Both the position numbers and the translations under genes were made by a program. From Somniosus microcephalus (taxonomy: Eukaryota), in assembly GCA_052327205.1 (NCBI GenBank), contig CM126206.1, positions 210,242,001 to 210,306,000 on the forward strand: DNA of 64,000 bases. Reading direction: 5' to 3'. The notes beneath the pieces were generated by a model. That model did no database searches and was not told where the DNA came from. It was given only the letters and a program-made list of their open reading frames with translations. This document shows, piece by piece, positions 3,451-53,144 of the stretch (its first letter is position 1; every line of letters starts with the position of its first letter).

Positions 3451-6400
3451 TTATATAGTACTCTCTCCCCCAGTCTCTCTCTCTCTCTCCCCGTCTCTCT
3501 CCCCCGTCTCTCTCTCTCTCTCTCCCTCAGTCTCTCTCTCTCTCTCTCTATCGCCCCATTCTCTCTCTCTCTCCCCAGTCTCTCTCCTCTCTCTCCCCTC
3601 AGTCTCTCTACTCGCTCTCTCTCCCGTCTCTCTCTCTCTCCCTCAGTCGCTCTCTCTACCCCTCAGTCACTCTCTCTCCCCCCTCAGTCTCTCTCTCCCC
3701 CCTCAGTCTCTCTCTCTCTATCTCCCCAGTCTCTCTCTCTCCCCCAGTCTCTCCCTCTCTCTCTCCCCCCAATCTCTCTCTCTCTCCCCCTCAGTCTCTC
3801 TCTCTCTGTCTCCCAGTCTCTCTATCTCTTCCCCCAGTCTCTCTCTCTCTCTCTCCCCCAGTTTCTCTCTCTCCCCGTCTCTCTCTCTCTCCCCCTCAGT
3901 CTCTCTCTCTCTATCTCCCAGTCTCTCTCTCTACCCCAGTCTCCCAGTCTCTCTCTCTCCTCCAGACTCTCCCTCCCAGTCTCTCTCTCTCTCTCCTCCA
4001 GTCTCTCCCTCCTCCAGTCTCTCCCTCCTCCAGTCTCTCTCTCTCTCCCCCAATCTCTCTCTCGCTCTCCGTCTCTTCTCTCTATCTCCCAGTCGCTCTA
4101 TCTCTCCCCAGTCTCTCTCTCTCTTCCCCCGTCTCTCTCTCTCTCTCTCTCCCCCCAGTCTCTCTCTCTCTCTCTCCCCTGTCTCTCTCGTCTCTCTCCC
4201 CCCAGTCTCTCTACTCTCTCTCTCCCGTCTCGCTATCTCTCCCCCAGTCTCTCTCTCTCCCCCTGGGTCGCTCTCTCTCTCCCCCCTCAGTCTCTCTCTC
4301 TCTATCTCGCCAGTCTCTCTCTCTCTCTCTCTCCCTGTCTCTCTCTCTCCCCCCTCAGTCGCTCTCTCTCTCCCCCCAGTTTCTCTCTCTCTCTCCCCGT
4401 CTCTCTCTCTCCCCCCCATCTCTCTCTCTCCCAGTCTCTCTCTCCCCCCTCAGTCTCTCTCTCTCTCTCTCTATCTCCCAGTCTCTCTCTCTCCCCACCA
4501 GTCTCCCAGCCTCTCTCTCTCCTCCAGACTCTCCCGCCCAGTCCCTCGCTCTCTCCGTCTCTCTCTCTCCTCCAGTCACTCCCTCCTCCAGTCTCTCCCT
4601 CCTTGAGTCTCTCTCTCTCTCCCCCAATCTCTCTCTCGCTCTCCGTCTTTCTATCTCTCTCTGTCTCCCAGCCTCTCTATCTCTCCCCAGTCTCTCTCTC
4701 TCTTCCCCCGTCTCTCTCTCTCTCTCCCCCCAGTCTCTCTTTCTCTCTCTCCCCTGTCTCTCTCGTCTCTCCCCCCAGTCTCTCTACTCTCTCTCTCCCG
4801 TCTCGCTATCTCTCCCCCAGTCTCTCTTTCTCCCCCTGGGTCGCTCTCTCTCTCCCCCCTCAGTCTCTCTCTCTCTATCTCGCCAGTCTCTCTCTCTCTC
4901 TCTCTCCCTGTCTCTCTCTCTCCCCCCTCAGTCGCTCTCTCTCTCCCCCCGTTTCTCTCTCTCTCTCCCCGTCTCTCTCTCTCCCCCCATCTCTCTCTCT
5001 CTCCCCCCAGTCTCTCTCTCTCTCTCCCTCCAGTCTCTCTCTCCCCCCAGTCTCTCTCTCCCCCCAGTCTCTCTCTCTCTGCCCTCCAGTCTCTCTCTCC
5101 CCCAGTCTCTCTCTCCCCCCGTCTCTCTCTCTCTCTCTCTCTCCCCATCTCTCTCTCTCTCCCCTCAGTCTCTCTCTCTCTCTCCCCCCCAACCCCCCGG
5201 TCTCTCTCTCTCTCCCCCCCCCAGTCTCTCTCTCGCTCTCTCTCTATCTCCCCAGTCTCTCTCTCTCTCTCCCCAGTCTCTCTCTCCCTTCCCCATCTCT
5301 CTCTCTCTCTCCCCCGACTCTCTCTCTCTCTCCCCATCTCTCTCCCCCAGTCTCTCTCTCCCTCTCCCCCTCAGTCTCTCTCTCTCTCTTTCTCTCTATC
5401 TCCCCATTCTCTCTCTCTCTCCCCAGTCTCTCTCCTCTCTCTCCCCCCAGTCTCTCTACTCTCTCTCTCTCTCTCTCCCCAGTCTCTCACTCTCCCCCTC
5501 AGTCGCTCTCTCTCTCCCCCCTCAGTCTCTCTCTCTCCCTCTCTCTCTCTCCCCGTCTCTCTCTCTCTCTCCCCCCTCAGTCGCTCTCTCCCCCCTCAGT
5601 CTCTCTCTCTCTCTATCTCCCCATTCTCTCTCTCTCTCCCCAGTCTCTCTCCTCTCTCTCCCCCCAGTCCCTCTACTCTCTCTCTCCCCGTCTCTCTCTC
5701 TCCCCCTCAGTCGCTCTCTCTCTCCCCCTCAGTCGCTCTCTCTCTCCCCCTCAGTCTCTCTCTCTCTCCCCCTCAGTCTCTCTCTCTCCCCCTCAGTCTC
5801 TCTCTCTCTCCCCCTCAGTCTCTCTCTCTCTCCCCCTCAGTCTCTCTCTCTCTCCCCCTCAGTCTCTCTCTCTCTCCCCCTCAGTCTCTCTCTCTCTCCC
5901 CCTCAGTCTCTCTCTCTCTATCTCCCCAGTCTCTCTCTCTCTCTCTCCCCCAGTCTCTCCCTCTCTCTCTCTCCCTGTCTCTCTCTCTCTCTCTCCCCCC
6001 CCCCCCCTCAGTCACGCTCTCTCTCCCCCAGTCTCTCTCTCTCTCTCTCTCCCCTGGTCTCTCTGTCTCTCTCCCCCAGTCTCTCTCTCCCCAGTCTCTC
6101 TCCTCTCTCTCCCCCCAGTCTCTACTCTCTCTATCTCTCCCCAGTCTCTCTCTCTCTTCCCCCGTCTCTCTCTCTCTCTCTCTCCCCCCAGTCTCTCTCT
6201 CTCTCTCTCTCTCTCCCCTGTCTCTCTCGTCTCTCTCCCCCCAGTCTCTCTACTCTCTCTCTCCCGTCTTGCTATCTCTCCCCCAGTCTCTCTCTCTCCC
6301 CCTGGGTCGCTCTCTCTCTCCCCCCTCAGTCTCTCTCTCTCTATCTCGCCAGTCTCTCTCTCTCTCTCTCTCTCTCCCTGTCTCTCTCTCTCCCCCCTCA

Positions 6401-6702
6401 GTCGCTCTCTCTCTCCCCCCAGTTTCTCTCTCTCTCTCCCCGTCTCTCTCTCTCCCCCGTCTCTCTCTCTCCCCCCCAGTCTCTCTCTCTCTCCCTCCAG
6501 TCTCTCTCTCCCCCAGTCTCTCTCTCCCCCAGTCTCTCTCTCTCTCCCCTCCAGTCTCTCTCTCCCCCAGTCTCTCTCTCCCCCCGTCTCTCTCACTCTC
6601 TCTCCCCATCTCTCTCTCTCTCCCCCCCAACCCCCCGGTCTCTCTCTCTCTCCCCCCAGTCTCTTTCTTGCTCTCTCTATCTCCACAGTCTCTCTCTCTC
6701 TC

Positions 6703-6848
6703 NNNNNNNNNNNNNNNNNNNNNNNNNNNNNNNNNNNNNNNNNNNNNNNNNNNNNNNNNNNNNNNNNNNNNNNNNNNNNNNNNNNNNNNNNNNNNNNNNN
6801 NNNNNNNNNNNNNNNNNNNNNNNNNNNNNNNNNNNNNNNNNNNNNNNN
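6703..6848. other. Assembly gap (N run)
   Basis: 146 N inside the CT array. Confidence 1.
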
Positions 6849-7573
6849 CTCTCCCCAGTCTCTCTCCTCTCTCTCCCCCCAGTCTCTCTACTCTCTCTCT
6901 CTCTCTCCCCAGTCTCTCTCTCTCCCCCTCAGTCGCTCTCTCTCTCCCCCTCAGTCTCTCTCTCTCTCTATCTCCCCATTCTCTCTCTCCCTCCCCAGTC
7001 TCTCCCCTCTCTCTCCCCCAGTCTCTCGACTCTCTCTCTCCCCATCTCTCTCTCTCCCCCTCAGTCGCTCTCTCTCTCCCCCTCAGTCGCTCTCTCTCCC
7101 CCTCAGTCGCTCTCTCTCTCCCCCTCAGTCGCTCTCTTTCTCCCCCTCAGTCGCTCTCTCTCCCCCTCAGTCGCTCTCTCTCTCCCCCTCAGTCTCTCTC
7201 TCTCTCCCGCTCAGTCTCTCTCTCTCTCCCCCTCAGTCTCTCTCTCTCTCCCCCTCAGTCTCTCTCTCTCTCCCCCTCAGTCTCTCTCTCTCTCCCCCTC
7301 AGTCTCTCTCTCTATCTCCCCAGTCTCTCTCTCTCTCCCCCAGTCTCTCCCTCTCTCTCTCTCCCCATCTCTCTCTCTCTCTCTCTCCCCCCTCAGTCGC
7401 GCTCTCTCTCCCCCAGTCTCTCTCCTCTCTCTCCCCCCAGTCTCTCTACTCTCTCTCTCCCCTGTCTCTCTCTCTCTACCCCAGTCTCTCTCTCTCCCCC
7501 TCAGTCGCTCTCTCTCTCCCCCCTCAGTCTCTCTCTATCTCCCCGTCTCTCTCTCTCTTCCTCTCTCCCCCCA

Positions 7574-7779
7574 NNNNNNNNNNNNNNNNNNNNNNNNNNN
7601 NNNNNNNNNNNNNNNNNNNNNNNNNNNNNNNNNNNNNNNNNNNNNNNNNNNNNNNNNNNNNNNNNNNNNNNNNNNNNNNNNNNNNNNNNNNNNNNNNNNN
7701 NNNNNNNNNNNNNNNNNNNNNNNNNNNNNNNNNNNNNNNNNNNNNNNNNNNNNNNNNNNNNNNNNNNNNNNNNNNNNNN
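7574..7779. other. Assembly gap (N run)
   Basis: 206 N inside the CT array. Confidence 1.
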
Positions 7780-8285
7780 TACCGAATTTCTAGACCTCTC
7801 CCTCTTTCTCCCCTCAATCTCTCTCTCCCCATCTCTTTATCTCTCTCTCTATCTCCCAGTCTCTCTCCCCCAGTCTCCCAGTCTCTCTCTCTCTCCTCCA
7901 GACTCTCCCTCCTCCAGTCTCTCTCTCCCAGTCTCTCTCTCTCTCCCCGTCTCTCTCTCTCTCCCCTCTCAGTCTCTCTCTCTCTATCTATCTATCTCCC
8001 AGTCTCTCTCCCCCAGTCTCCCAGTCTCTCTCTCCCTCCTCCAGTCTCTCTCTCCCAGTCTCTCTCTCTCTCTCCGTCTCTCTCCTCCAGTCTCTCCCTC
8101 CTCCAGTCTCTCTCTCTCCCCCAATCTCTCTCTTGCTCTCTCTCTCTATCTCCCCAGTCTCTCTCTCCCTTCCCCCATCTCTTTCTCTCTCTCCCCGTCT
8201 CTCTCTCTTTCCACGTCTCTCTCCCCCAGTCTCTCTCTCGCTCCCCCTCAGTCTCTCTCTCTCTCTCTCCCCCCATTCTCTCTCT

Positions 8286-8636
8286 CAATTCAATTCAAAT
8301 CGCTTTATTGGCATGATAAGGTACATCTTATGTTGCCAAAGCATCAAAATTGATTTATGGTTGAACACATAAATGCAGTTCTATTCATACAGTGTATAAA
8401 CAGGTATATCCCTGAGTGTATAAATATACATTCGCATTGTTTATATATACTCTTTTCTTAGTTTACTGGTTGTCCCTCTGTTCATGGCAAGCTGTAACAT
8501 AGTGTGTCGCCAGTGTTACACAGCTTCTCTCCTCCCCCAGTAGGAATGGGAGTTTTTGGTTGTCATTCAGATTTCTGAATTCAGGGCATATTTGTGAGAA
8601 TTTTTGGTAGAAATTCTCCCTGATGCCCTTATATTT
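8286..8636 (-). mobile_element. 5'-truncated LINE 3' end (ORF2 C-terminus, 3' UTR, AATAAA, (TTGAA)n tail), related to the element at 1-3450
   Basis: The minus strand reads ...FYQKFSQICPEFRNLNDNQKLPFLLGEERSCVTLATHYVTACHEQRDNQ* (TAA at 8463-8465). This resembles the C-terminus at 1-120 (FNKLSQTTPDFKELDDLSKLRLVLGEGD..LGAKYV). AATAAA lies at 8309-8304, then TTTGAATTGAATTG runs into (GA)n. Confidence 0.8.
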
Positions 8637-8752
8637 TCTCTCTCTCCCCGTCTCTCTCTCTTTCCACGTCTCTCTCCCCCAGTCTCTCTCTCTCTCCCCC
8701 CAGTCTCTCTACTCTCTCTCTCTCGCCCGCGTCTCTCTCTCTCTCCCCCTCA
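8637..8752. repeat. CT-rich microsatellite, continuation of the array beyond the LINE fragment
   Basis: Same units as 3460-8285. Its start resembles 8182-8240 (tctctctccccgtctctctctctttccacgtctctc). Confidence 0.9.
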
Positions 8753-11729: not shown

Positions 11730-12580
11730 TTGTTCAAAAATCTAATGTCGGTGCCTTTGAAGAAAGCCTAGGTGCATTGCCAGATGTAATGACCAATAAA
11801 TCTCAAACCTCCCATGTCCCTGTGCTAAATTAGCTGGACCAGAGCCATTTGTCCAACCATATTTCACATACTCAGCTCCAACACAGACGGCCCTACCCAC
11901 GTTTATGTAAAGTGCACAATTCTCCAAAAATAAATGTGCTTCTGGACTTCGATGCAAATAACACTTTTGATCTCGGATCACACTGCGGTTACCGCCTCAG
12001 TGTCCTTGACACGAACAGATTGAAGTTTAACCAGAGGCGTGTTTACGGTTTTACTTTGCTATTTAAACAGATACATTCCAATAAAATGAGCCATTTGCAT
12101 AGGTGCAGGATTTATCCTGTTTCAAGAATGATTACTTTCTGGAGCATGGTAAAAGATTGGGTTCAGCAGATAGGTGCTTTTTACCTAAGTGCAGCCGAAT
12201 ACAGTACCAAGATCACTCAGTGACTGCAATCTTTGGAGGTAAGACTCATAAAACAAGAAAGAATAACATTCTTGAAAGTCTTCCATTAACTCTGCAGACA
12301 TCTAGTGGGAAAGCTGTGTCACTACAAGGGCATATACTGGAATGATCTCGCCTGGAAATCTGGAATATATGTACATCGTTGTTGCTCCTTCTCACAGAGT
12401 GCCAGACATTATCCTTGCCCGCCGGTCGTTTCAAGTTTTGCAGTGATTCCCTCCGTTATGAGCGAGTTTTCTGCAGTCTTGTCATTGGGGAGTCTCTGCC
12501 ACTCGCAGTATCAGAGTGGTTGTGAGTTACAGTTAGTCCCGAAAGCTACTTATCCGACCTGAGCCTGAGCTGAACATGTA
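11730..12580 (+). pseudogene. Hoxa14: Probable degraded exon 1 of the HoxA14 pseudogene (boundaries approximate)
   Basis: Broken + frames give motifs in the same order as posterior Hox13-type N-termini: YGF..KMSH (cf. Hoxa13 YGYF..RMSH), CSFSQ (cf. FAFYQ), PVV, and LSLGS....SGCELQL (cf. LPMES....NGWNGQV). They are interrupted by stops and frame changes and lie 2.2 kb upstream of the clear homeobox remnant. Confidence 0.45.
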
Positions 12581-14796
12581 GGGGTCAGCCATGCTTATCA
12601 GGGAGCTATAGAGTTCCCACGACCCTCTAATCTCACTGGTCAAATTAAGACGGATACTAATGAACCAGACCTGAGCATAACCCATTACCATCACTCGCCC
12701 TTTACTCCTAGCGAAGAAGTAATTAATTACCCTCCTTTCCTTGCGTCTGTTGGAGCTTGCTAAGAGAACGAGTTAAAGTGACTGGGATCAATTTCTGATC
12801 CATTTTATAACATTTGCAATCAAAATATTCTAATGCTAAGATTAATATAGGAAGATTCGATAAACATAATTAACTAAAACGTCAAAAATAAAATCACTGG
12901 TGTGATATATACAGACCAGTTTTTTAACTAAAATAATTCAACATCCATTATGGAGCCGGAAAAAACTACAATTAGTTCGCGCCTTCTAGCAGCCTTATTT
13001 CTCCTTTGCATAATATCAGATATAATGTAAGTTGAGCTTTTTATGTACTGTACTGCTTGATGCAAGCTATCTCGTGTATAAATTAAGTTAATTTTGGGTG
13101 TGGAACACTTTATTTTAAATGTCTGTTGAATATTGCAGTCTCACTCTGCTTGCGTGAAGCAACGGAAAACCTCATTCACGATTAAGATCGTGTGTGGTAT
13201 AATGTTCATAGTGTGTTGCATTTGAGCTTCATAAATTGACAAGAAGAAACGTTTCGGTCTAAAAGCGATAGTAAAACTTTATGTTGATACTATCCTCCAC
13301 TCAAGTGCCCAAAACAATATTAACAGATTATCATTTTACGATGACATAATTTTTAAACAGTTCACTGGGAGGGTGACGAGATGTTTGTTACTGCCTAGGA
13401 AGCATTTTTTTTACAGACTGGAGAAAGAGAAAATAAACCGATCATCCTTTCATGCTACCTTTATCGCCGAAACTTATAAAAGTCATCGAAGACTTTCAGG
13501 GGCAGTTGTGAACGAAGATGTGCAGATGTTTGTTTCGATATGTTTATACAGATAGCTGAAGCCAGTCCCAGCGGAGATAGTTTGTTTAAATATTCAGTGT
13601 CATAATGTAAATCCTACAAGCACCGGTGAATTGATTTTACAAGAATAATATTGGTTTATAAATACATTTTGCTGCTGCGTGTTGAAGTGCACCTTAAATA
13701 ATAAAATAGCCCATTCATTGAATATATACAATATGACGTTTCCCCAAGGTTACTGATTTATTAAGGTGGAGAGTACACTTTAATTAAAATACATTCATAG
13801 TAACAAAATAGAAAATTGTTCAGGAAATATATGCACCTGTATTTCCTGTAATACCTTTTAGCAAATTCTTTGTTTTCACATATATGTATGAAAATAACCA
13901 AATTAGGGATGACAATTCAAAGCAATAAACGGTAAGTAGCATCAAGATACGTTGATTTGTAGCACTTACGTCTAGCTTATCATTATAGTCTGTAAGAAAC
14001 CCCGACAGAAAACAATCTTTGTAAAACATACAGTCATCGACAACATTAAATATATCACTTATTATTTGGTATGTAACACGTATATGTAATGGAGTTACAG
14101 ATTGTAACAGAAAATAATGCCAATGCAAAAGATGTGTCGTTAAAGGAGAACAATAAATGATATGTGTCTATTCACGTCTCACAATTGCAAACATATGCAA
14201 TGCCTTATATTAAACTAACTTTGGTGTTTAGCTTTGACATTGTACTTGTTAAATGTATGAAAGATTGATTTCATATAGTGTGGACACCAGTTACATCACA
14301 AATTTGCAACAATCTCGTTTTCTAGTCTGTATTGATTCGTATGTCTTTAAATCTAATTGTATTTTATACCTACAAACTATGGGCTTTGGCATTTTGTCGT
14401 TTATAAAGGAATGCATATAAAACTTAGTATAATATTTGCATCTTGTGTGCGTTTATGAGTAGTGCAGACTTGAAGAGATACTTGTCTTTTATACATTTAA
14501 AACCTCATATAGAGCTTTAGGTAGCAGTTGTTTACCGAATTTTCATGATTTGAGATCATAGATTCAAATTACCTCAAAGCTGTCATCTGCACATTTATAG
14601 GTGTATTCGAAAAATGTATTTGCACTCATTGTACATATTTAACGCCTTTGAGGTTTTATCATAAAGTATCACTATGGAACTTTATATGCATTTAGTTAAA
14701 GCGATGAACGTTTTCTTCAGATATTAATAAAGTTGTACATAATATTAAATACAATGGAAATAATTGAATCGAATAATGGGGTATTCTCGTTTACAG

Positions 14797-14986
14797 CTCC
14801 GAGTGCTCATTCACCCTGGTCTGCCCACCCACGAGCTCAGTACAGACAGAGGAAGAAAAAAATCCAACATAGCAAACCCCAGACTGCAGAACTCGACCGC
14901 GCTTTCGAGGAAACCTGCTTTCTGACGCCTGAAATATGACAACAATGACAATAGCTGTTGCAAAACTGGGACTGTCAGAACAGCAG
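14797..14986 (+). pseudogene. Hoxa14: HoxA14 pseudogene exon 2 (homeodomain residues 1-44)
   Basis: Acceptor tttacag|14797 (phase 1). Translates to ..RQRKKKIQHSKPQTAELDRAFEETCFLTPEI*, with TGA at 14937-14939 falling at homeodomain position 31. An 8-nt excess then shifts the frame to KLGLSEQQ, ending at donor CAG|GTAAAT (14987). Confidence 0.88.
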
Positions 14987-15090
14987 GTAAATACGAGAAG
15001 ATTCCAAAGGAGAAATATTCCAGGCGGGCTCCAATATGTAATGAGCCTTATTTGACGGGAGTCCACTACAATAACATTTTCTCTTGATCG

Positions 15091-15160
15091 GTAAAAATCT
15101 GGTTTGAAAATCAGCATCAGAACAAGACTCATTCGCCGTCAGCAAACTGGAACAAATAAT
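15091..15160 (+). pseudogene. Hoxa14: HoxA14 pseudogene exon 3 (helix 3, VKIWFENQHQ...)
   Basis: Follows a 104-nt intron whose pyrimidine tract ends in a dead acceptor (ttttctcttgatCG). GTA AAA ATC TGG TTT GAA AAT CAG CAT CAG reads VKIWFENQHQ. An intron between homeodomain codons 44 and 45 is the hallmark of vertebrate Hox14. Confidence 0.88.
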
Positions 15161-18100
15161 TTAGTTGTGGGGTGCAGAGCTGAAACCGGACCTTTACAAA
15201 TAAATTATCTTTTTATGTAAATATTTTTGATAAATATTTACAAATGGCACCAAAAACGAGGAAGTGACGATGTAGTTTGGTTTAAAGCATGAAATAGGTC
15301 AATATTATTTTGAAGCAAATGTATTGCTATCGACTTGTTCTAAATAATTCAAATTAGAGGTAAATTTAGAATATAATAGAAAATATGCAAGGCTTTAAGT
15401 GTATTATTATATATTTCCGTTTTCTTTTATTTTGAATAAAAGGGTCAGTTGAATTTTGTTAGAATATATTTGTTAAAAGGTGTGTTTTTTTAACCTTTTA
15501 CAAAAATACCTCTTCTCACTAATGGTCTCATTATCTTTTAATAATGTCGGTGATAAGTATATTGCAACAGTTTCGTGAACAGTTATGGAAATACATTTGA
15601 ATTACTTTTTAACATGCAATTTTATTTTGCAATTATACCGTAAAAAATATACGCACTTATTGTGCATAATAAAGGTGATACAATCGAAAGCGTAAGGTGC
15701 CCTCACCAGTGTGAGAAGCCGAGTCAGATATGCACTCACAATTCAATGATGTCACTTACTCCAATTCAAGTACAGTATACTGTATTCTTAAATTGTAATT
15801 GATAATAAAAATAAACAACATTTTATATCGAATGATGGACTAACATTAGTAAATGTGAAAAACGAAGTCTGTTACTCTTTTAACCCATTGTCTGTGGACG
15901 TGTGGCATTGATCAATGGCAGCCAACACAAATACATATATGCAAAATATTTGTATATTGTTGTATTCTGAAACGGCTTGATAATTGAAATTATACAAACA
16001 CGCATGATATCTAGAGATGCCAAACCCAGTTCTCGTAAGTAACAAGTTGTTCTCCAAGGACATATACATCTACAGGGTCTGTCTCAGGCAGTTGGTCACT
16101 GGTACGGGTCATGAGGCAGCATTCACAATTATGATTGAATATACTCGAGATGTTTTATAATTATGAGATAGAAGGAGGAGAACCACTTCCTATCTGTAGT
16201 GTGGATATCTTTATTGATATGTATGTTATGATATTGTAAATTAAGCAATTCATGGACAGCGACATTGGTTAATCATTTTGATGGATCTCAGTCGGGCTCC
16301 AGGATAGTATTTCGAAATGTTTCAGGAAAGCAGCATGGAATGATTGACAGGATATGTTGGTTTGTGGAGTTGCCGGTTTTCATCTAATAACTGCACAAAT
16401 ATTCCAAATACGATTCGTAAGACCCATATGGTGAACAGGCTGTAATTTAACTGTTGTAGGAAAATGAGCATTGCAATAATACCTTATTGTGATTAATTGG
16501 CTAAGGTCTAGAAATAATTCTAACATAAGTAATAGATACATAATAGAGCAACACAAGAATAAAGAGTTTCTTTGTTGGTTTTGTCTAAGTCATTGCTTTG
16601 CGTTTTTTAACCTGCAGTGCTCGAAATTTGAAATACTGGTAGTTGCAGTGAATGAAGGACAGCTGATATTGGAATATGAGTGATGTAACTTATATGGCCT
16701 ATGTGGTAGAAAATCGGAAATCAAAACGACACCCACTAAATTAGCTATTTATCTTAATTATTAAATCGTTAAATATTATTAGTAAATATTCATCAACAAC
16801 TGAAGGGAACAAATAATAAAAATGTAAAATGTATGATAACATGATCGGTTTAAACACAGTTCCTGGAGTATGTGAATGTTATTTCCTTTTAAAGCGTATT
16901 AGGCTGGCAATCATGCAAAAGAGAAACTAAATAGCAACTTTGAGAACATATGCCATATAGGACCTTAAAATTGCCACAAAAGGGTTCTAGAAATGTTTCG
17001 AATGTAAAAATAACAAATGCACTCAAGTCAGCTTAGTTCTTTGACATGATAATTGGATTGTACACGAGGCACAATCTATGCTATAGTCTAAACGTATTTC
17101 ATAACATCCGCAAATAAAATGAACACAAAAATATTTTAAGTCTATGATACTCTTGGACGACGGCTTAAAATGTAGGGGCAAAGATCCAGTTTTAACAGCT
17201 TTACGGTTAATACATCCTTTCCATATTATTTGATGGCATATTTATGTTGAAAAATACTTTTTTTAAGCCGTATTGCGCCGAGGAATCACGACTGATAAAA
17301 TATTCAGAGACATTTGACTGGACCAACATGGAGATCTTCATTCAGAATGAAGAATTTGCGGATTAAAATACACAAGTTTCCTGGACCACGTAAATACTTT
17401 CATTAGGTGAAAATGGCAAATCATGATCTCGGTGATCCCCAAAAGCTTGTACACTTTAACCCTATGTTGATGCAATAAAACGAATCAAAATACGAATTCT
17501 CTTATTGGAGAACAACGCTTGGACATGTTTTAGGCCACATCAAATTATGAACCAATATGTACAACCGTGTATGTTCTCACTCAACTTGTTTGTAGTTTTA
17601 CCCCAGCGACCGTTTTGATTTCGGGCACACATAATGCGCACCTATGTAGTATTTATTCGCAATTTCAGCCCGGTAGAACAAAAAACTAGGTTGGTAACAT
17701 ACAGCAAATTAGGACGTCAAGTGCTTTAGCATGGATGTTCTGTAACACGTTTGAAAGTAAATATATTGATCTTATTAAACGAAATAGCAGACCATAATTA
17801 TAAAAGAGTTTATTTTATATTATAATTCTAAATATGGCTTTATAACGATTCGTGAGCATATCCGGAATGGCGGCGTACAGTACCTCTCTGGACAGTTACT
17901 TCTAAGGCGTGCATTTTTGCTCGTTGCCACAATGTAAGCTTCTCATTGGTGATGTACTAATCTGTAAATTGTTTGAAACCATATCTTGGCGATCACACCT
18001 GAGACCACAGTACGACCCTCAATACTTTGGCGTATTATTCATTAAGACAGTTGCCTTATCTTCTACAGAATGCCCCGACCTTTTCAAATAACATTGACGT

Positions 18101-21527: not shown

Positions 21528-22176
21528 ATGACAGCGTCAGTGATACTTCATCCCCGCTGGATCGACACGGTGATGTTCGTCTACGACAATAGTTTGGATG
21601 AAATTAATAAAAACATGGATGGATTTTCAGGAGGGAACTTCACAGCAAATCAATGCAGGAATTTGATGGCCCATCCAGCATCCCTAGCCCCCAGCTCTGC
21701 CTACTCGTCGAGTGAAGTGCCAGCCTCTGGCATTGCTGAACCTGTCAAACAGTGTAGTCCTTGTCCTGCTGTTCAAACTTCGTCCAGTGCTTCCCTTCCT
21801 TATGGATACTTTGGGAGCAGTTACTATCCCTGCCGAATGAGCCACCATAGCAGCATCAAGTCCTGTGCTCAGCCCTCCACCTTGTCTGGCTATCCTGCCG
21901 ACAAATATATGGACACGTCCGCCGGCGAGGAATTCACCTCCAGAGCCAAGGAGTTCGCTTTTTACCAAGGTTACGCGGGGCCATACCAGCCGATGCCCAG
22001 CTATTTGGACGTACCTGTGGTTCCCACCATCAGCGCTCCGGGAGAACCGAGACACGAAACATTATTACCCATGGAGAGCTACCAGCCCTGGGCAATTACC
22101 AATGGGTGGAACGGTCAAGTCTGCTGTTCAAAAGAGCAGCCCCAAGCTACGCACCTCTGGAAATCGAGCCTGCCAG
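21528..22176 (+). CDS. Hoxa13: Homeobox protein Hox-A13, exon 1
   Basis: [21 protein letters not shown]...QCRNLMAHP...KEFAFYQGY...[12 protein letters not shown]; donor G|GTAAGT at 22177 (phase 1). No polyalanine tracts. Confidence 0.97.
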
Positions 22177-22599
22177 GTAAGTATAGATAAAAAGCAACGC
22201 GCTTTCAATTATCTTGAGAAACGAGTTTAATGAAGGGAACAAAGCATTCTGATGTGTAAATACGTACGGGCACCTGGATAATATATAAAATAGATTAGAA
22301 TTAAGAAATTATATTCGTAATTCTCCAATACAAGTAATACTATATTATCATATGCTTTAATGTTTAGTGTATTGCCTAAATATTATTTTGCATGATTTTT
22401 CACAATTAACTCACAATTCTCACGCATTTTTCAAAATTATATTTTCTGCTATATAATTTATTGCAAAAGGTACAGTCTATATAACGTCTCCCGGGTGTGA
22501 TCTTGAACTTGACTCCGGCGACAGTGTCCGTTTTTAAACTTTTATTTGGTGGCAAGTGCTAAATGCCATGGATGGTAAGGTATGTTTTTCTCTTCACAG

Positions 22600-22844
22600 A
22601 CGTCGTTTCGCATCCTTCGGATGCGAGCTCTTTTCGGCGTGGAAGAAAGAAAAGAGTGCCTTATACCAAAGTGCAGTTGAAAGAACTTGAGCGGGAATAT
22701 GCTACCAATAAATTCATTACCAAGGACAAACGAAGGAGGATATCGGCATCAACGAACCTCTCTGAGAGACAAGTCACTATTTGGTTTCAAAACAGACGAG
22801 TCAAAGAAAAGAAAGTTCTTACCAAACTGAAAAGTAACAGCTAG
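22600..22844 (+). CDS. Hoxa13: Hox-A13 exon 2 (homeodomain)
   Basis: Acceptor tcttcacag|; [72 protein letters not shown]; stop TAG ends at 22844. The spliced product is 297 aa. Confidence 0.98.
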
Positions 22845-24371
22845 TGCGACAATTCCAGAAACGTTCGGACTTCTTTTGAAAATGTAAAAAAGAACTGATC
22901 TCAGCCTGGAGAAAAAAAATACCACCTCAGCTCATTTCTTGATGCTAGATTTTTTTTTCTTTCTGCCTGCACATTGCTTTAAAAAGAACAGAAACACACA
23001 AGTAAATATCTAAGAGAGAGATTGTATAAAAATGTTGTTAAAGCAAACTAATTATTCACCAAACGTAAATCAAACCCATTAATCAAGAATCTAGAGGGTT
23101 GCTATTTTTAAATGTAGTAAACATGCGGGGTAAATTGTTTAGTGCATATAAAATATATCACTTAAAAAGAATAAATGTACCAATTTGATTTATACAGTAC
23201 CTTCGCATAAACGTCATCAAAGCACCTGAAGAAAATGTGTATTGCTGAAAAAGGTTCTGGTTAATAAAGAAAACTAGAGTGCATGCTATTTTTTCCTCAG
23301 GTAAACCATGGGATATATCGTGAAATGTATAATAAAATGTATGTTTACGCACTACATTTTCTTTGGAAGGGATGCGCTATCTCTAAAGATATTAATGTAC
23401 AGGTAGAAGGAAGAATATATTCTAAACAGCAATGTATATGGGAAAGTAAATACGTACTATTCTAGGACTCTACATTTTGTCTTATGTATATATTTAGGAG
23501 CACCCACGCCTTTCGCAATTAAACAGCAAAGTAGATTGCCATTTTCTACAAACGGAGTAAAGATCTGTCTGCAAACATGGAAACCCCCCTCCCGTGTAAA
23601 TTAACTAAATATTAAGTCTTTTTTGTCTGCTTGTTATATTACCCACCTCACATAGGATTAGACTCCACGCAGACTTAAGGCGCATAGCTTCCTTCCTAAA
23701 GATGACAACATCTGTGTGCAATTGTATTTTTTTAAATACCGCATTGTATATCTGCTTGCACCTCTCCTGCTTAGTTAATATATACCAATTATAGTTACAA
23801 AATTAAATCACGAATGATAATCATGAAATTAAGATATGTCTTGCATTGCTATTATGCAGCTGTTTAATCTGTATACCCTATTCTCTTTATTCATCTAGTG
23901 AATTACTTGCATTAAAACAAATTATTTCACGAATAAAAAGGTCTTTATAAACAATAGCGTCGCATTTTTTGTTAAGAAACATGACGCCAGCTAAGAGATT
24001 TTAAAACGAAAATGTAGAGAATATGGGCCAAGTAGATTTGTTCTTGATGTCAGCTAGGCCATTTGTTTAAAATGCCTTGAAAACATGCTATCGTACTAAA
24101 GTTCTTAGAAATAATCAAGAAATTTGCTAAGAATAAAAGGTATCCGTGAATATTCCCTGCTGTTTTTAATTGAAAACATTACTACCAGGAAAAGTATCAC
24201 GATTATTACGATATAAACACTTTTTGGAAGTGGAATCCCTAAGTTTGTATATGAAAATATGCTGAAAGTTTAAAAGCATTAAGCATTAGAGTCTCCATAT
24301 TCTGATTGGAAATATACGCTCTGCTTTTGGTTTGTATATGGGGGCAGGGCGTTAGGAGAGGGGCTTAAACC

Positions 24372-24410
24372 TTGACCTTGACGAAAACAGATAGTCTTTG
24401 ACCTTGACGA
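24372..24410. promoter_or_regulatory. Paired TTGACCTTGACGA direct repeat (two TCAAGGTCA extended nuclear-receptor half sites)
   Basis: Identical 13-mers at 24372-24384 and 24398-24410. Confidence 0.6.
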
Positions 24411-24452
24411 TTAACAGCCTATGAATAGTCATGAAGTGTATTGGTAGAGCAA

Positions 24453-24470
24453 GTGCGCCATCTACTGTCA
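24453..24470 (-). promoter_or_regulatory. CTCF motif between Hoxa13 and Hoxa11
   Basis: Minus strand TGACAGTAGATGGCGCAC versus consensus CCASYAGRKGGCRSY (1 mismatch). Confidence 0.7.
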
Positions 24471-27400
24471 CATCTGCGGGTATTCATTTATACGGGCTTT
24501 GAGCAAGCGAGCAACCAACCTAACATATTTGTTTCAACAATAAACAAGCAGTGGGTGAACTGTGGCCGTCAAATGTAGGTCATTAACACTAACAACGAAT
24601 TATGCATTGTCCAAATTGTGTGAAAGCTCAGAGAAATAATTTTAAAAGTTCGAATTTCGACGACTTGCCAGGAATGATTTACTACATATATATATAATAA
24701 TATGTAAACAATAAAACCGGCAAAAACAATCACCAAGCTTTTGGTGTTGTACTAAAAATCACAAGTGGGAAAGTGTAGAATCAATATAAAGAAAGAGCTA
24801 TGGTAACATATTTTGTAAATTAATTTCCACGGATAATTTAGATTTCAGCCGCTGTAAAATAACTAAAGAAAAGGTAGCCAAACTGATCATGCAAAGATTA
24901 TCACTATCACATTTGTGAAATGCATAGTTTTATTTTAATGATGTTTAAAAATATATATTTGCTCAGTCAGTCTATAGCGTGTCTGTCTATGTATCCATCC
25001 TTCCATCACTCTATCTATCTGCATCTTTTCCTATTTGCTTCTGCCAGTATTATCAATTCAATTCCATACTCATGCACACCATATCTGATAAAATAGTTGT
25101 ACATTTTAGTAGCTAATTTCACAAAACTAAAGCAATCACTTAGCTGTTTTTTCCCCTGTAAATGGTATTATGGAATTTAGTTAGAAACAACTCAAGATTT
25201 TAAGAATTGTGTCTATATATTTATAAAGCATGCAGTCTATATTAATTTCAAATAGAAACTGTGGAAAATTGTATGTGAAATTCCATAATCTGTTTTTTTT
25301 GTAGGAAGTAGAAGTGTAAAACTATCATTTAATCTGCCTTTGTACCTTTGCATCAACCAAAAATTGAAGCTATTTAACACAATTTTTCATTTTTTTTAAT
25401 ACAGAGTTACAGATAAATTCAATAGACATGCAAACAGTATTCCGTTTTTATCGCAGGCGTTGTAGAATTGCGCTCTTTGCAATTATTAATTGTGACCAAG
25501 CTAAGCAGGCTCGCTTATGTAACCAATGAATTTTTGTAACATTTATTTCCAATCAATGTTAAATGGGTAATGTCCAGCCCAGCTTGTGTCCTTTCTTAAT
25601 ACAGCCCAAACCGCAATCCAGGTGTTGCCTATTGCAAAATGAAAGCTGATTTGTCAAAATGTTGTGGGATTATAAAATTCTACACTCATCACATGACGCA
25701 TTCGAACCAATCACGGCATCCTCTTATAAAGTCCGACTAAATATTTGTTGGAAAACACTTGAAAAGAACCACCCACATTCTCTCTGATCAAGGCAGGTCT
25801 AATGATCAGCTTATAGTTGTTTACTAGATGCACTGAGTTTAGAAATATCGCAAGATTTCTATTTACACGGAAGAGGAATAAATAGTTAATTGGTATTTTA
25901 TTAGTTATGATTAACCATTGTTGATTGGTGCGATCAAAACAGATCATTAGTATAGATGTAACTGACAATTATCAGTGCTTTCCAAAGAAATCAATCCAGT
26001 GCAAACATTTATTTCGGGCTGTTTTTTGCCGATCTTGGGCTTTAAGTAAAATATACTAAAGGGAAAAGGCTATACGTAGCCATTGAGCAGTGACTGGGAC
26101 ATTTCAGATTATTCGATTCATTTCTTGTTATTCATTTATTGCAAGATAAAGGAGCAAGTAAAGTTAACCATATAGTCAATGTTACCCCGTGATATAAGCA
26201 CAGCAAAGCAGAAAATGCAATCAGTTGAAACAGGAATTCTAGAATATATTCATTTAGCCTTCGGTTCTTCCAATCGTTCTGCGTCAATGGATTCATCTTG
26301 AACTGTGAATCTCCATTTACAGTAAATAAACGTACCTTTTATGAGTACAGTGGCGATCACGAGCGATTAACCTAATTTATTGTAAAAACGATAATGCATT
26401 TTGGATCATTGAATTTGTGTTGCGAAATAACCCCAGTAAGGGTCTCCTGTGCAGTCCTCGCGGAGAAGCTCGCACATGTTACTTTAGAATGCCATAAAAG
26501 ACTTGTAATTTCGATAGAAATACACGAAACAAAACATTATTAATCGAACTTAAAGGAATCCATGCGCTGTATCGGCTATAATTATAACAGCGCATATCAT
26601 TCTATCATATATTAGCGCACATTAGAAACAAAGCAGCATTTGACGAGAACTGAAGGCGTATTGAGGCCTGGAAATGTCTTCAATGCAGTTTTAGATTTCA
26701 TTTCGCTTCTCTTATCGCCACCTTTTTAAAATATACAAACGTTCACATCATTGTATCTATATCCAAATTAAATTAACTTGGAGTGATTGTTCTATTCGCA
26801 GCCCGTGTGTTTATTTATATCTTGATAAAATGGTATATTTGATTTATTTTGTTTCTTTCCTTTCACTCGGCTGTAGACAAACTATCAATTCTAAGGCTAT
26901 ACATAATTCATTATATGAGGTATATATATATACTACAAAACGCGTTTTAATTTTTTGCGTTTATTGCTAAGCAGAACGTCTTATCATACAGTTAAATGTA
27001 TCCAAAAATTAATATTCTTAATAATAAGAACCAAATAAATAAATATTTAACGTCTAGTGTGAATCATTACAAAATAATATTTAATGAATTCAACGAAGAA
27101 CCTCGGGCTGCTTAAAGTGGAGTTTTAATTAAACGTACTATCCCCCAATGAACAGTATGCACAGCTATTTGAAAGGGCTACCTATATTTTTAAACAAAAT
27201 TACATCAAACTGACTTTAAAATTGTTGAATTTACTTTAAAATTTATAACCAAATATTATCAAGCCAATTCGATCCAAAAATTAACTTGTTTTTATAAATG
27301 AAAAATAAAGCGGAGCCTTAGTACTGTAATATGTCTGGTTCTAGTTAACTCAAAGGTGCTTGGTTGTACACGTTGACTCGTTATTTTACTTTAATTTAGA

Positions 27401-27703
27401 ATAGAATATACCCACAGTGCAAAAATAGTGCCTACTAGATAAGACATTTTTGACAACATGGATCCGGAAAAGTATAACCCTTTAGAAATGGGATATGTCG
27501 GAAACACTCGCGGTATCGGAGACCTACTTTAGTCGTTTATGTATCCAATATATTGCACAAATAATAAACTGCATTTTATAAAATGAAAATATATAGTACA
27601 CAAAAAAGGCCATTTATGCAACCTCAAACATTGAATTTACAGACTACCTGCCACAGTATAATCTTTGCGAATATCAATTTTGTGTGCGCATATTAATGGA
27701 TGC

Positions 27704-27773
27704 ATATCAACATGAAATATATCCGTTTATTTGATATATCTATATACTAAACGGATATATTTCATGTTGATAT
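27704..27773. repeat. Perfect 26-bp inverted repeat with 18-nt spacer
   Basis: ATATCAACATGAAATATATCCGTTTA (27704-27729) and its exact reverse complement (27748-27773). Confidence 0.95.
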
Positions 27774-30700
27774 ACACATAATAATTAAATAATTAAATAC
27801 TTTGTTAAGTCTAAAAAGGTTTGTTAAAAATAAAATCTACACTATTTAGTTAAAGCTCAAAGTCTTTCCAGGAATCTGAACAGATCTTAATATAGGAAGT
27901 CACATAAAAACATAGTGCAGGCTGTGTTTTTTAATACACATAAAAAATCTGTACACACACATATTTGGGGCAGGTTATGCTGCAGGATATTTCGGGTGTG
28001 TAATGTTACACTTTTAACTGACTAATGGGTTTTAAGTTTGCAAACTAACTTGAGGAATAATTAAAGAATTATATGTCTAATATATTCTAGTGCATTTTGT
28101 TGGGAAATATATTTCAGATCGCGGAAATCTTTTTTTAATACTGCTATTGATAAAAATTAAATTTGAGTATTTGCAAACGCTCTTAAGTATTTTCTAATTA
28201 ACTGTGCGATGATGTCAGTATAATTCCACTTAACAATATAAAATCACAAATCAAAAAAATAGCTTTAATATACCGTAATACATTTAGCATGATGTATAAT
28301 TCGAGACTTCCTTAAAATTACAAGTCCAACTGTTCCATTTAGGGGATATTCTATGTTGGACATAAAATGATTCATTACGTCTTAATTGTATTATTATTTT
28401 TGCATCTCCAAATGCAAGCCTGAGATTAAAGTAATGACTATATGTCACGAAAAACAAAAAAAACCTTGATTTTTTAATCTTTATTTTCATTCTTTAATAG
28501 AGTAAATGTAATTTCTGTGACGGTTTATGAAATATTGAATCGCTTTGAATTATTTTTTGCGCGTGGTCTTACAGCTCAGTTTCCAGTAGTGTAGTGATGC
28601 TCTTTAATGGTTTGCCGAAATAATACAGTCCGAAATGTTCTTCAGTATAATCAACGTCGAAGATTTGTCCAGCTCCAACTATTATTCTGAGGTGTTATTT
28701 ATGTATCGTATTTGGAATGTGATATGGTTCTCATTTCTTTGTTAATGTGATTTGTTTTCAAATAGTTAATGAATTAGCAGTAAAACTTTAGCTTTGTATC
28801 TCTACATGGACGGATGTAAACAGATAAAATAAAAGTTCCAATGGTAAATTCGTTCACAGTTGTGTGAAAGCATACTCTTGAAAAACTGAAGCAGCATATT
28901 GTGATATGAACTTTGCCCATTGAGCTCAAAGCATTTATTACGTTCTACATTCAGAAAAATATATAACGGCATTCAGAGCCACTGTCATCCAAAGTAATTT
29001 ACATAACTCATTACTAAAGCATCAGAATGAGTGCTCATGCAATTCGTTAATTGTAGCTTTCATTAAAACACAGTTCACTCCGTCTCTTCTCAGATGCACA
29101 CAGTCGCGGTCAGTCTTGTTGACATTTAACACAATTTCAGTATGTCAATGTAATTCCATATGTTCTTTCAGTTGAAAGGGATTCAGTCATTTTTCACATT
29201 CAAAGTTTAGTGAGCACACATTCGACGTGTGTGTGTTCTGAATGTTCATCTAGGAGACAACTGCATCACACCACGGCTTGGGATATGCTAACCTGCCGAA
29301 GATTAGATGCAATTAGAAGACTGCCGCTGCTGTGTTCATATGGGTACGCCAACTTGGCACTGAACAGATATAAGGCTTCAGGAAATGTTCCGAACCCACC
29401 GCACCTGCGCATTCTGAAGTACCGGCTACTTATTGAAAGACTGAGGATTAGAAACTGGAAGAATCCATCCGAAATATGCAGGAAAATAGTTCATATACTC
29501 ATGTCACAGTTTTTGCTACATGTTGAGGTGAGTAGAGCGCCTTTTAATGAAGAGAATCCTGAAATTCCAAGCTGTGTTCCTCTAGCCAAGTTCAAAGTAA
29601 GGAGCTTTCAAGTTCAAACCCGGCCAGTTCAGGTGAAACTCTGCATTCCTTCTAGCTATTTCAATGCTCATGACTGCTTGGCCCAGCTTTTATATTGCAA
29701 TAGAGGAGAGGCGCCAGTTAACACAAATGTTTTCGTGAAGGATAATACTGCCTAAAATTACCACTGAACTATTATTGGGTTTATTTAACATATTTATTTT
29801 TATATTTCATATGAGTCCCGCTTTCAAGCACTAAACCTATAGCTGAAATGTTGCTTTGTCGGCAACGGGCATATCTCCAAATTATTTTTTGTCGTGCATG
29901 CCAAGTTCAAACCATTAGATGAACTACTCACCCTCCTCAAATTGGTATTTCATATAAAAGTGATAATGAATGTTTGGTTCAAAATAAAATCGCACGTGTA
30001 AGACTGAAAAATGCTCAGAGTTGAAACATTGTTCGCGTGTATTTGTAAATAAAACACCAATGTTACGACGATTAAGCCCAAATTATTCAAAAGGGAAGTT
30101 CCAGTATTAATTAATATCTAATTTATTTAGCCATGCAGTGTTAAAAAAGCACCGGCTGAGCGTTTTCTTCATGACTTATTCGGCAGCTTGACATATTTGG
30201 ATTCCAAATTGTGGAATGTATTGAAATAATTGCATAAAGTATCATATTAAAATACGTGAAAGAGTTTTAATAATTTTATTGGGCAACTATACAGACGTTA
30301 AAAAGAATTCGGAATCAAAGTAGTACATATTTACCATAACAAGATTGATACATTGCGAATTGCCAATATTATAGATACACGCATTCCTTTTCATAGTATA
30401 GTGCATGATGACAGAGAAAATAAGAAACCTCCGCGCAAATAAGTAAAAAGTGTAAAATGCTCACTTATAATTTGTAAACCGTGTTGGCGTCAGGTTTCAC
30501 TGCCAATCCTTACTAAATACGCGCGATCCTGCGAGGGTATTACTGTGCTGTCCTGGTTTTGATCGGGCACCAAAAGAATATTAGAAAAATCAAGTTTAAA
30601 ATATTTATTTTGCTTAGTTGTGGGTCACAGAATTCTATGTAGAATGTCTTATTTCACAGTAATTTTAATAAATCTACTGTGGTTCAACAAAATTACAATG

Positions 30701-33700
30701 AAACAAAACGATACAACTTTGGCTTAGTTTTCATCTTCAAGTATAATCTGCTCGGAGGCTATGCCCTATTATTGCTCTACTCGGGCTGTTTTTTTAATCT
30801 TAAAAAAATCATATTATATCAATTCAACTCATCTTTCTAATAAAGTGCTCCTTTCTTGAAGTATTTAAATGAACTTTCTGCAGAATTTCCGAGACGCTAG
30901 GCATAAAAATGGCCGCCCGTCACCGTTGTCTTGTCATTGCCAGTGTCACTGAACAAGGGGGCAAAACAACCACTCACACAAAAACAACATGGATTTTCGT
31001 TAAAAGAGACGTAACCTTCTGAGGCCAATCATTTGCAGTTTAGATTTTGAAATTCATGACATTCATTTTTTGGTAATCAGAGAAAAATAAAGTCATTGTA
31101 GACCCCCTCCACCAAGAAAGGATTTTATTTTTCAGTTTATTTGATTTCACACCATTGACTTAGAATGCTATTGGCTCGAAAATATATGAACGGATATATA
31201 CGGGCGCAGTTTGCCGGGACAATTTCGATGTCAGCTTATTTTTGAACTAATAACTGCGATGAAGTATTACAATAATGTGAAGGAATTCCGTTAAAAGGCG
31301 ACAGTTACTGTCTGACAATAGCTCCAGTTGAAGATGTCATTATATGTAGGGGGCTAAATGAGGAAATATCCACTTCCACTTATCCATGAAGATACTCTTC
31401 TCATTTGCAACGTTTTTCCCGTCTAAAAAAAGGAGACAGATAATGCAGTAATGAGTTAAACCATTCCACGTTAGAAAATTAGCTTGGGGTGTAGTATAGC
31501 AAAGTGCTTTTGCGGTTGCACGCAATTAAGACATATGTTACTTTATTTCCACAGTGATAAGTAAGGTGCAATGTAATTCGTGGGAACAAGTGAATAACTA
31601 ATATGAATACAATATCCTGCAAAACCAGTAAAGGCTGGTTGTTTGCATACCGCATTGAATAGCTTGAGGGTAACAACAAAAGTGTGCTCACCGCAAAAAT
31701 AGCTATTAATTTTTACCCCGTGGATAGTGATACTTTAAAGTTAATGAATCCATGCACGACTAATTATATTTTTATTCACTGCCCCATTACATTACAATTA
31801 ATGACAAGATCAACTTTACAAATGTCGGCAGTGCTCGCCCAAATATTTATCTTTTCTTCAAGAGGAACATTGGAATTAAGCCATTTTCATTATGATTCAT
31901 TTTAATTTCGGATAGTATAACTCTCATCTTGAAAAGTACCTTTTTTTTACTTGTGCAGCATTTTCCAAAGTTGAAGTTCAATGTTAAGCAGGCTGTGCAC
32001 CCTTAAACTGCAAAGTCGTCAAATAGCTCAAGTAAAGACTTTGTCTTACCACAATCTTGCTTCTGTGCTTGTTTTTATGTTCAAACTTCAGCACTAGTGT
32101 TTTTAATCCGATTTTGTTTCTGACAATAACTGCGACGAAGCTGCAAAGTATACATCAGTGTGAAGAAATTCAGCTTCATCCGGGTCCCATCTCTCCCGTT
32201 GAGTTGGACTCCTGCAGGAAAATAGTCTACGCCGCAATAATTCACTGATCCCCTTAAACTTCGGCATTTACATTACATTTCATTCACATCAAATATCAAC
32301 CGAATGTCCGCAGTGTGTGCCTGATATGACAACAACAAGGTGGGTATATTTAATTTTTGGAACCACCTCTTTAGCTTTACGTGACTATATTCTTGGAAAT
32401 GACTACGACTAAAGACTAAAAATGACGACACGAGTTAATTTGATGTAGAATCTGTAATTACAAGTCAACTGTAAAAGGGCGATACTTACTGCAATACAAG
32501 TGTGATAACTGGGAAATGGATTGAAAATGGCGCAGCCTATAAGGTGGATCTTTGCTCGTTTTTCGGCTTTTATTTAATCGAAAACGCAATCGCCAGCTTC
32601 CCTTTTTCGTTTGGAAGATTATTAAACAGCTGCAACTTTGCTTCTGTTATTCTCTTTGAAGTATTACAGGCAAACGGCGTTAAAACACATAGCAACATAC
32701 CTACGTAGAATCCATCCTTCTCGCAGAGAAAGAAAGGGGCAAGGAACTAGATTTTGATCAACACGTAGCAAAGACGCGCAATGTACAGTACTCTTTAAAA
32801 CTCAGCCGGACTTTTATCAGACAAAGGCCGCGTCCTTGTCTCTTTTTGGGGACGCCTGAATGCTCACGTTAACTGGGGATGTCAAGGATTCCATGTAGGT
32901 GGCGTCTTTAGCTCACCCCTGGTCAGCTATAATGCCTATTCGGGCATCTGGCGAAGCTGGTTGTCAAAGCTGCTATTAAAACAGCAAGTCAAACTAAACC
33001 GCTTTCGGTTTTCATAGGCGCCTTGTTTTTAATTATATTATGAGAAACACTGTACATATGTCGGAATTTGCCCATTCTTACAGCGACAGATCGTACCACT
33101 GTCCTATCGGATTTCCTTTATTTTTAAAAATCGTAAAACTTCAAATTCTACATCATACTTAAGTAATTTTGAATACGGAGGTTACTAAATATACCCGATT
33201 GCGAGTCAATCCTATTTAGTTTTAAAACCATTCTATGCTATTTGATTCATATCTTATTTTTAAACTGTCAAATTTGCAGCCACTCGCACATTATGACTCC
33301 CCTGTATCATTCCGTTTCATACAAATCATTTTTTCTAACAAGACTTTAAATAAAAATGTAGAAGTGTTGGGTAAGTGTAATGAGCAACGGTTGAACTGCA
33401 CACATAGACTTTATATTCAATATTATCAAGCTTTATTATAAAATATGGCGTTTATATATAATTATATTAATATTCTCTGTGTTTTCAGTATCCAAAATTA
33501 CTGTTTTATATGCTGGCCTTATTTTATAGCGATTGAATTATCCGATTACGGCAGGCCAGAAAATGAATAAAATCTGTGATGCAAGCATTTGCAGAATTTT
33601 CATATCGTTGTTGAGCATTTATCATAACGAAACAATTAGAAAAACAAGATTAAATTGTCATCTTGTAGCTAGAATGGTTTCTAGTAAAGATATTTTTAGA

Positions 33701-35149: not shown

Positions 35150-35290
35150 TGATGCATGTCAATTTCTCCAGGCATCAGGTCACATGACTGGCTTGTCCCT
35201 GCGATGTATGGAGATACATTTCCACGTCAGCTTACGTTTCCAAATTTTTACTCCGCGGATCAGCTTCAAAGAGGCAGCAGCATCTAAGGA
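35150..35290 (+). promoter_or_regulatory. Hoxa11 promoter / 5' leader element
   Basis: GGTCACATGAC E-box-like site and TTTCCACGTCAGCTTACG..CTTCAAAGAGGCAGC. These are recalled as conserved upstream of vertebrate Hoxa11. Confidence 0.65.
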
Positions 35291-35347
35291 CCATGTTTAG
35301 CTGTGCGAATGCAAGCTATTCTTGCGCTAGGGGACCCCAAGAAAGCG

Positions 35348-53060: not shown

Positions 53061-53144
53061 AACTGACGTGTGATTTAGGTAGTTTCATGTTGTTGGGGCT
53101 CAAGTCTATCTCTACAACACGAAACTGCCTGAATTACTGCAGTT
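53061..53144 (+). ncRNA. mir-196: microRNA mir-196 precursor (HoxA locus, positional orthologue of mir-196b)
   Basis: Mature TAGGTAGTTTCATGTTGTTGGG at 53076-53097 pairs with the 3' arm CTACAACACGAAACTGCCTGA, with a basal stem AACTG...CAGTT. It lies between Hox10 and Hox9. Confidence 0.97.

Follow-up and report, generated by a model that had tools for sequence, protein, structure and literature searches.

A HoxA14 pseudogene with three recognizable exons and mapped lesions in the HoxA cluster of the shark Somniosus microcephalus

A split homeobox interrupted by a stop codon lies 5′ of Hoxa13 in the shark Somniosus microcephalus, raising the questions of which gene it once was, when that gene died, and whether the locus is still in use. 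The window, defined here as the whole stretch of 64,000 nt that was analyzed (GenBank assembly GCA_052327205.1, contig CM126206.1, positions 210,242,001 to 210,306,000), had been described in a first-pass annotation as holding a fossil HoxA14 at 14797..15160. From sequence comparison, we favor the reading that this locus is an inert HoxA14 fossil, apparently decaying at a neutral rate with all three of its exons still recognizable, and assign to it a probability of roughly 85%.

The window covers a shark HoxA cluster, with A13, A11, A10, and A9 in this order on the + strand; a six-frame scan finds four intact homeoboxes (22641, 37163, 51028, and 60089), all on that strand, and Evx1 lies outside the window. 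Queried with its exon 1, the Hoxa13 gene (Table 1) matches chondrichthyan HoxA13 at 95% and every other listed cluster at 80% or less. The Hoxa13 protein of the window has two differences from that of Heptranchias, and two from that of Carcharodon/Cetorhinus (terminal residue excluded), the smallest differences among the 15 chondrichthyan HoxA13 compared; it is without the batoid S22N, and has S89 as in Heptranchias, batoids, and chimaera, versus seven galeomorph rows. The shark is probably a squalomorph. The HoxA14 relic is 5′ of this gene on the identical strand, and the 6368 nt measured from position 15160 to the Hoxa13 ATG agree with the 6.4 kb given earlier. With nhmmer, no HoxA12 or other homeobox relic was found in the Hoxa13-Hoxa11 interval (22840-35300) at E below 7, and with a DNA profile built from the four intact homeoboxes no further relic was identified in the window, the strongest additional match having E 0.27. 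A TC-rich satellite (3461-8749, with a 22-nt CTCTCTCCCCCAGTCTCTCTCT-like unit), from which spurious long ORFs arise, ends 3.6 kb upstream of the relic and contains N gaps at 6703-6848 and 7574-7779.

Table 1. The HoxA14 relic and its surroundings in the window (positions are counted from the first nucleotide of the window).
Feature	Position	Strand	Details
Relic exon 1 of HoxA14	12342..12744	+	tblastn, frameshift-aware alignment
Exon 1 lesions	frameshift near 12391; stops 12560, 12566; extra base near 12736	+	
Intron 1, GT..AG, 2052 nt	12745..14796	+	phase-1 GT donor 12745, intact AG acceptor 14795-96
Relic exon 2: linker and homeodomain codons 1-44	14797..14986	+	36/61 aligned residues identical to coelacanth HoxA14
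TGA at homeodomain codon 31	14937..14939	+	
Net +8 nt with period-9 repeat ATGACAAC/ATGACAAT	14940..14962	+	
Homeobox intron, codons 44/45, 104 nt, phase 0	14987..15090	+	GT donor intact, acceptor = CG
Relic exon 3: VKIWFENQHQ, -5 shift at 15121-27, LIRRQQTGTNNLV tail	15091..15190	+	
Hoxa13, intact, synteny anchor	21528..22840	+	exon 1 21528-22176, exon 2 from 22600
mir-196 precursor, usual place between Hoxa10 and Hoxa9	53067-53140	+	

The split homeobox of the first-pass annotation was verified base by base: KLGLSEQQ ends at 14986, a GT donor follows at 14987, and VKIWFENQHQ resumes after the 104-nt intron. Exon 2 begins in phase 1 at a point coinciding with that at which the HoxD14 isoform P0018 diverges from its siblings, and homeodomain residue 1 (QRKKKIQHSKPQTAELDRAFEETCFLTPEI) is at 14847. 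Another HoxD14 isoform (P0197) diverges immediately after ERQ-V, which fits a read-through at the same 44/45 junction. The stop reported at homeodomain position 31 is present as well; this codon is an invariant Arg in 20/20 Hox14 proteins, and the TGA is likely derived from CGA. From this TGA to the donor there are 47 nt versus 39 expected, so the 8-nt excess stands as a net count, but not as a simple ATGACAACA/ATGACAATA duplication, since the repeat has a period of 9 and is by itself insufficient to yield +8. By comparison with the IAVK of lungfish, the excess is likely best parsed as +5 at 14943-50 and +3 at 14960-62. A TGA occurs in both repeat units, which suggests that the stop preceded the duplication. 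As for the proposed AG-to-CG change of the second acceptor, CG is what is read, and AG is a former state that we infer. Following Q54, 7 nt are found versus 12 expected (-5), and homology picks up in a different frame (LIRRQQTGTNNLV) and reaches about 15190; this bears out the suspected further shift after NQHQ, and carries the coding relic past its earlier limit of 15160. In helix 3, WFENQH is read versus the WFQNQR of Hox14, with the diagnostic Q52 kept, and with Q50 and R53 each one base away.

The earlier extent had also missed the first exon, in which the ATG at 12342 is retained and begins MISPGNLEY, versus MIFPGNLGY in HoxA14. In tblastn, this exon matches HoxA14 from coelacanth (E 1.7e-8) and from lungfishes (5.2e-8 and 1.3e-7), and among the matches listed HoxD14 proteins reach E 0.047 or weaker. 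A frameshift-aware alignment has 43/116 identical residues, starting from residue 1, and scores 108-115 for A14 versus 50-55 for three D14. The 3′ end and donor phase of exon 1 were derived from homology together with the indels of related organisms (described below). A broken first donor was considered and dropped: because the relatives are without the extra base at 12736, the GT at 12745 is an in-phase donor. The relic has the three exons and the homeobox split at codons 44/45 of paralog group 14 (PG14), and a disabled frame with introns kept at the ancestral locus, as in a unitary pseudogene; because the introns are kept, it is no retrocopy.

Is this gene HoxA14, rather than another Hox gene? 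A 46-aa fragment of exon 2, searched among 1.84 billion representatives, has two matches, of which the best is a lungfish Hox14 protein (E 8.9e-8, 60%); the second (P0002, E 7e-5) is a repetitive unrelated protein and was rejected. The lungfish protein is labelled Hox-B9a-like, yet it is 83% identical to the Neoceratodus "HoxA14 homolog" and has WFQNQR. Its family comprises three HoxA14, chondrichthyan and sturgeon HoxD14, and three cyclostome Hox14 proteins; the HoxD14 label comes from a source in two rows, and the remaining D14 were assigned by motif and tree. Most of the intact Hox14 proteins (P0001, P0004-P0021) are misnamed (Hox-B9a-like, D12-like, A4-like, hhex-like, php-3-like), and the group is therefore hidden from searches by name. 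The same fragment had no match in a word-index protein search, and Pfam Homeodomain on the relic reached E 0.064, under the cut-off. Shuffling 8.8-21.4 kb 100 times gave at most 24.3 bits; coelacanth HoxA14 reaches 54.3 bits in exon 2 and 46.2 bits in exon 1, both above the shuffle maximum, and exon 3 alone gives 23.5 bits, which is inside the shuffle range and not significant. In a BLAST comparison with 204 proteins, which gave 173 matches, the top 32 belong to PG14 without exception, and exon 1 has a strong match to A14 only.

We placed the relic in a tree of 19 rows, using an X-filled read-through; each D14 cluster was represented by one or two of its members, with P0010, P0013, P0015, P0017, and P0018 omitted. 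In this tree, the relic is sister to three sarcopterygian (lungfish and coelacanth) HoxA14 at 100/98, on a long branch (0.76), and the AU test rejects its placement in the D14 clade (p=0.0047). No chondrichthyan protein groups with A14 in this tree, whose underlying family search is incomplete, because the caecilian Hoxa14 was not returned. Across 55 homeodomain positions, the relic agrees with coelacanth A14 at 38, with Heptranchias D14 at 35, and with the A13 of the window at 20, and three of the four columns diagnostic for A14 versus D14 are A14-type (the remaining one fits neither). A tree from the homeodomain only (60 columns) places the relic in PG14 at 93/94 (not starred).

These comparisons also bear on a different origin, namely that the relic arose as a tandem duplicate of Hoxa13 that later decayed, or by transposition of a HoxD14 copy. 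With the homeodomain only, the AU test leaves a grouping with Hox13 unrejected (p=0.079), and the best match in the PDB is HoxB13 (E 0.11), with mostly Hox13 and no Hox14 among the 19 listed matches; because of the unrejected grouping, the A14 assignment leans on exon 1 and on exon structure. Hoxa13, however, is without a homeobox intron, its exon 1 as query has no match in 12.3-12.8 kb, where A14 proteins do match, and the D14 placement is rejected as above. Exon 1 effectively refutes this origin, to which we would give very little weight. The identification as HoxA14, not HoxD14, is supported by these sequence comparisons and sustains the earlier naming of the fossil; neither of the refuting outcomes set out in the first-pass annotation, a best match to a non-Hox14 homeobox or the lack of a significant alignment across both exons, occurred.

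The lesions themselves appear to be real. An intact HoxA14 misread through errors of assembly or sequencing could be envisaged given the N gaps about 4.5 kb upstream, but 0.99 of 319 sampled words are present in two runs of a second sample, the low-depth contigs of another study match the window without a difference over 15038-15188 and 12625-12775, a related organism carries the +8 as well in an alignment with 0 gaps, and missense changes at invariant residues would persist in any case; we regard error as extremely improbable. Four pieces of 151-183 nt from run X13 occur in exons and introns alike, without joints; they look like low-depth genomic DNA, and serve as sequence confirmation only.

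The relative order of the lesions can be approached through related organisms. Of 19 runs listed, 15 contain the stretch, with shares of 0.99-1.00 for organisms A and B, 0.35-0.36 for C, and 0.22 for D, and small shares otherwise; four of the 19 were aligned to the locus, organism C being run X8 and organism D run X9, and the tables for these relatives list 40 of the 152 substitution rows and 12 of the 25 indel rows. Divergence from the window is 2.6% for organism C and 4.1% for organism D. Over 14786-15062, the contig of organism C aligns with 8 substitutions and without a gap, and C therefore carries the +8. Organism D is represented by a single contig across the whole stretch, with flat depth over exons 2-3; its 25 missing letters are all upstream of 14440 (11 inserted letters are without placement), and so no deletion falls in exons 2-3. 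On these alignments, the +8 is older than the split from organisms C and D. Organism C has no row at the stop at 12560, in a list seemingly complete up to 13861; this stop is probably common to C and the window, and probably predates their split.

Other lesions would be younger. Both relatives carry an additional base at 12391, lack one at 12736, and read TGG at 12566, and their states also bring back A14 matches (K>R, T>P). Since these three lesions are absent from the relatives, they are private to the window lineage, in which the two shifts and the stop at 12566 would have arisen later, and decay is continuing. Organism D has a lesion of its own (-2 at 12493). From 15110, the contig of organism C has five letters more and one fewer than the window, at places that are unlisted; the five extra letters would fit a -5 shift private to the window lineage. 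The contigs of organism C break at 15063-15109; the letters next to 15110 on its upstream side are GATCG, preceded by foreign sequence. This suggests an insertion in intron 2 of organism C, with loss of the neighboring 15091-15109, the site of the VKIWFE core. In organism D, pieces of another long contig match intron 1 at 13105-13128 and 14154-14171 on both strands, possibly as the remnant of a repeat. The first-pass annotation had called the lesions independent, which overstates the case: they are successive changes in one dead gene, and not independent losses.

With respect to coding capacity, the frame from the ATG closes after 34 codons, and is blocked again by the stops at 12560, 12566, and 14937, by the shifts at 12736, 14940-62, and 15121-27, and by the CG acceptor; with every step blocked, no homeodomain can be produced. 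Homeodomain residues R5, Q50, and R53 contact DNA, and all three are altered in the relic (R5K, Q50E, and R53H). The 20 Hox14 proteins have 36 invariant homeodomain positions; the deletion has removed 4 of them from the relic, and of the remaining 32 the relic differs at 9, of which 4 are Arg codons that fit CpG deamination. The CpG observed/expected ratio does not separate the relic (0.60-0.69) from four intact exon 1s (0.61-0.70). The homeodomain branch of the relic is 0.39, versus 0-0.11 for the end branches of intact Hox14. Differences from organism C amount to 9/403 in exon 1 and 30/1117 in intron 1, with 8/277 in exon 2 plus part of intron 2, and 8 of the 9 in exon 1 change an amino acid; this similarity of exon and intron divergence, with mostly nonsynonymous changes, is the pattern of neutral decay, although the counts are small.

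A rough age follows from the invariant codons if these have been neutral since the death of the gene, with 2.25 replacement sites assumed per codon. The 9 changes in 32 then give 0.147 substitutions per site (95% 0.066-0.28), or 0.087 (0.028-0.205) without CpG-type changes, and the window branch since the node with organisms C and D is 0.013-0.015. By this rough estimate, the time since HoxA14 died would exceed the age of that node by a factor of about 6-12 (range about 2-20). This fits a single loss on the chondrichthyan stem as well as a later shark-specific loss.

A locus that is dead for protein may nevertheless be active, through a non-coding transcript from the old promoter and exon 1, or as a regulatory element for 5′ HoxA. 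The ATG, the first donor, the first acceptor, and the second donor are intact, and among the rows listed, organism C has 0 private substitutions in exon 1 but 16 in the 1117 nt of intron 1 (post hoc Fisher p=0.005, in a range of 0.005-0.01), a weak hint of constraint on the exon. A broken gene need not be silent, because the bowfin hoxd14 pseudogene is transcribed and spliced despite its stops, according to the available part of PMC8423624. On the window lineage, however, exon 1 has no fewer changes than the intron (9 substitutions and 2 indels in 403 nt versus 14 in 1117), organism D has a private deletion in this exon, and a zero in one of several 400-nt segments is not rare by chance. One RNA run (X16) has 0 reads at the locus in 16.65 million records (24% of the run, without tissue label or control), and no RNA run is present among those of the 19 listed runs that contain the stretch, which is uninformative on expression. 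We consider an active locus unlikely, and return to the inert HoxA14 fossil as the preferred reading.

Under this reading, two vertebrate genome duplications could have left the Hox14 copies redundant; the chondrichthyans would then have kept HoxD14 and let A14 die, and lungfish and coelacanth would have kept A14. HoxD14 is intact in 11/11 chondrichthyan rows of the 19-row tree. That the relic can still be read is likely owed to the slow evolution of shark genomes and to the low tolerance of Hox clusters for large indels. A late death of HoxA14, confined to this shark lineage and not dating from the chondrichthyan stem, is also doubtful, to a similar degree as continued activity; some relatives would then still use the locus, as a spliced non-coding transcript or a regulatory exon 1 (at which the unchanged exon 1 of organism C hints), or as an intact gene next to HoxD14 in an unsampled early-branching shark. 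If that were true, two working Hox14 paralogs would have been kept far longer than assumed, and lost repeatedly in jawed vertebrates. The relic is useful mainly for dating the loss of HoxA14: shared versus private lesions bear on whether cartilaginous fishes lost this gene once or several times, and some lesions predate the split from the two relatives, others being private. Views of Hox function would not change unless expression or an intact copy were found.

HoxA14 pseudogenes are a known class, occurring in cartilaginous fishes, turtles, and crocodilians, to which the present copy contributes a relic that has all three exons and whose lesions are mapped. A horn-shark A14 relic was reportedly described by Powers and Amemiya in 2004. 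As the first-pass annotation had stated, chondrichthyan HoxA14 pseudogenes are in print: the available text of PMC3707753 gives HoxA14 and HoxB14 as pseudogenes in Callorhinchus milii and describes the Hox14 homeobox intron, and that of PMC3509897 defines PG14 by three exons and by WFQNQR instead of WFQNRR, and reports group-14 pseudogenes in several cartilaginous fishes, calling independent decay likely and leaving it unresolved. Skate and horn shark are without a Hoxa14 gene according to the accessible part of PMC2746220; that of PMC1845163 holds no A14 passage. Our literature search returned no description of the lesions of this relic, and, as primary Hox14 papers and supplements were outside its scope, it supports no claim of absence from print.

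The HoxA14 pseudogene of Callorhinchus milii resembles the relic, a putative unitary pseudogene, in its place in a chondrichthyan HoxA cluster, and chondrichthyans have kept HoxD14; Callorhinchus milii belongs to a lineage different from that of the shark relic. Shark HoxD14 is expressed in the hindgut (PMC5054437, available part). In the part of PMC11600591 at hand, Hoxa14 is intact in caecilians and present as pseudogenised exons in turtles and crocodilians; the latter are the same gene, with frameshifts and stops, and alignable like the relic, but represent a separate amniote loss. The hoxd14 pseudogenes of bowfin and gar resemble the relic in their stops and kept split junction, but lie in the D cluster, and bowfin hoxd14 keeps WFQNQR and is transcribed, whereas the relic has lost both this motif and the acceptor (PMC8423624, available part). 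The closest counterparts are the HoxA14 genes of coelacanth (P0004) and lungfish (P0001 and P0003; lungfish A14 is covered in the available parts of PMC3038165 and PMC7875771), which share with the relic the three exons, the phase-1 first intron, the split at codons 44/45, the MIxPGN N-terminus, the position 5′ of Hoxa13, and the sister placement in the tree. These genes are intact, whereas in the relic the frame is destroyed and WFQNQR has become WFENQH.
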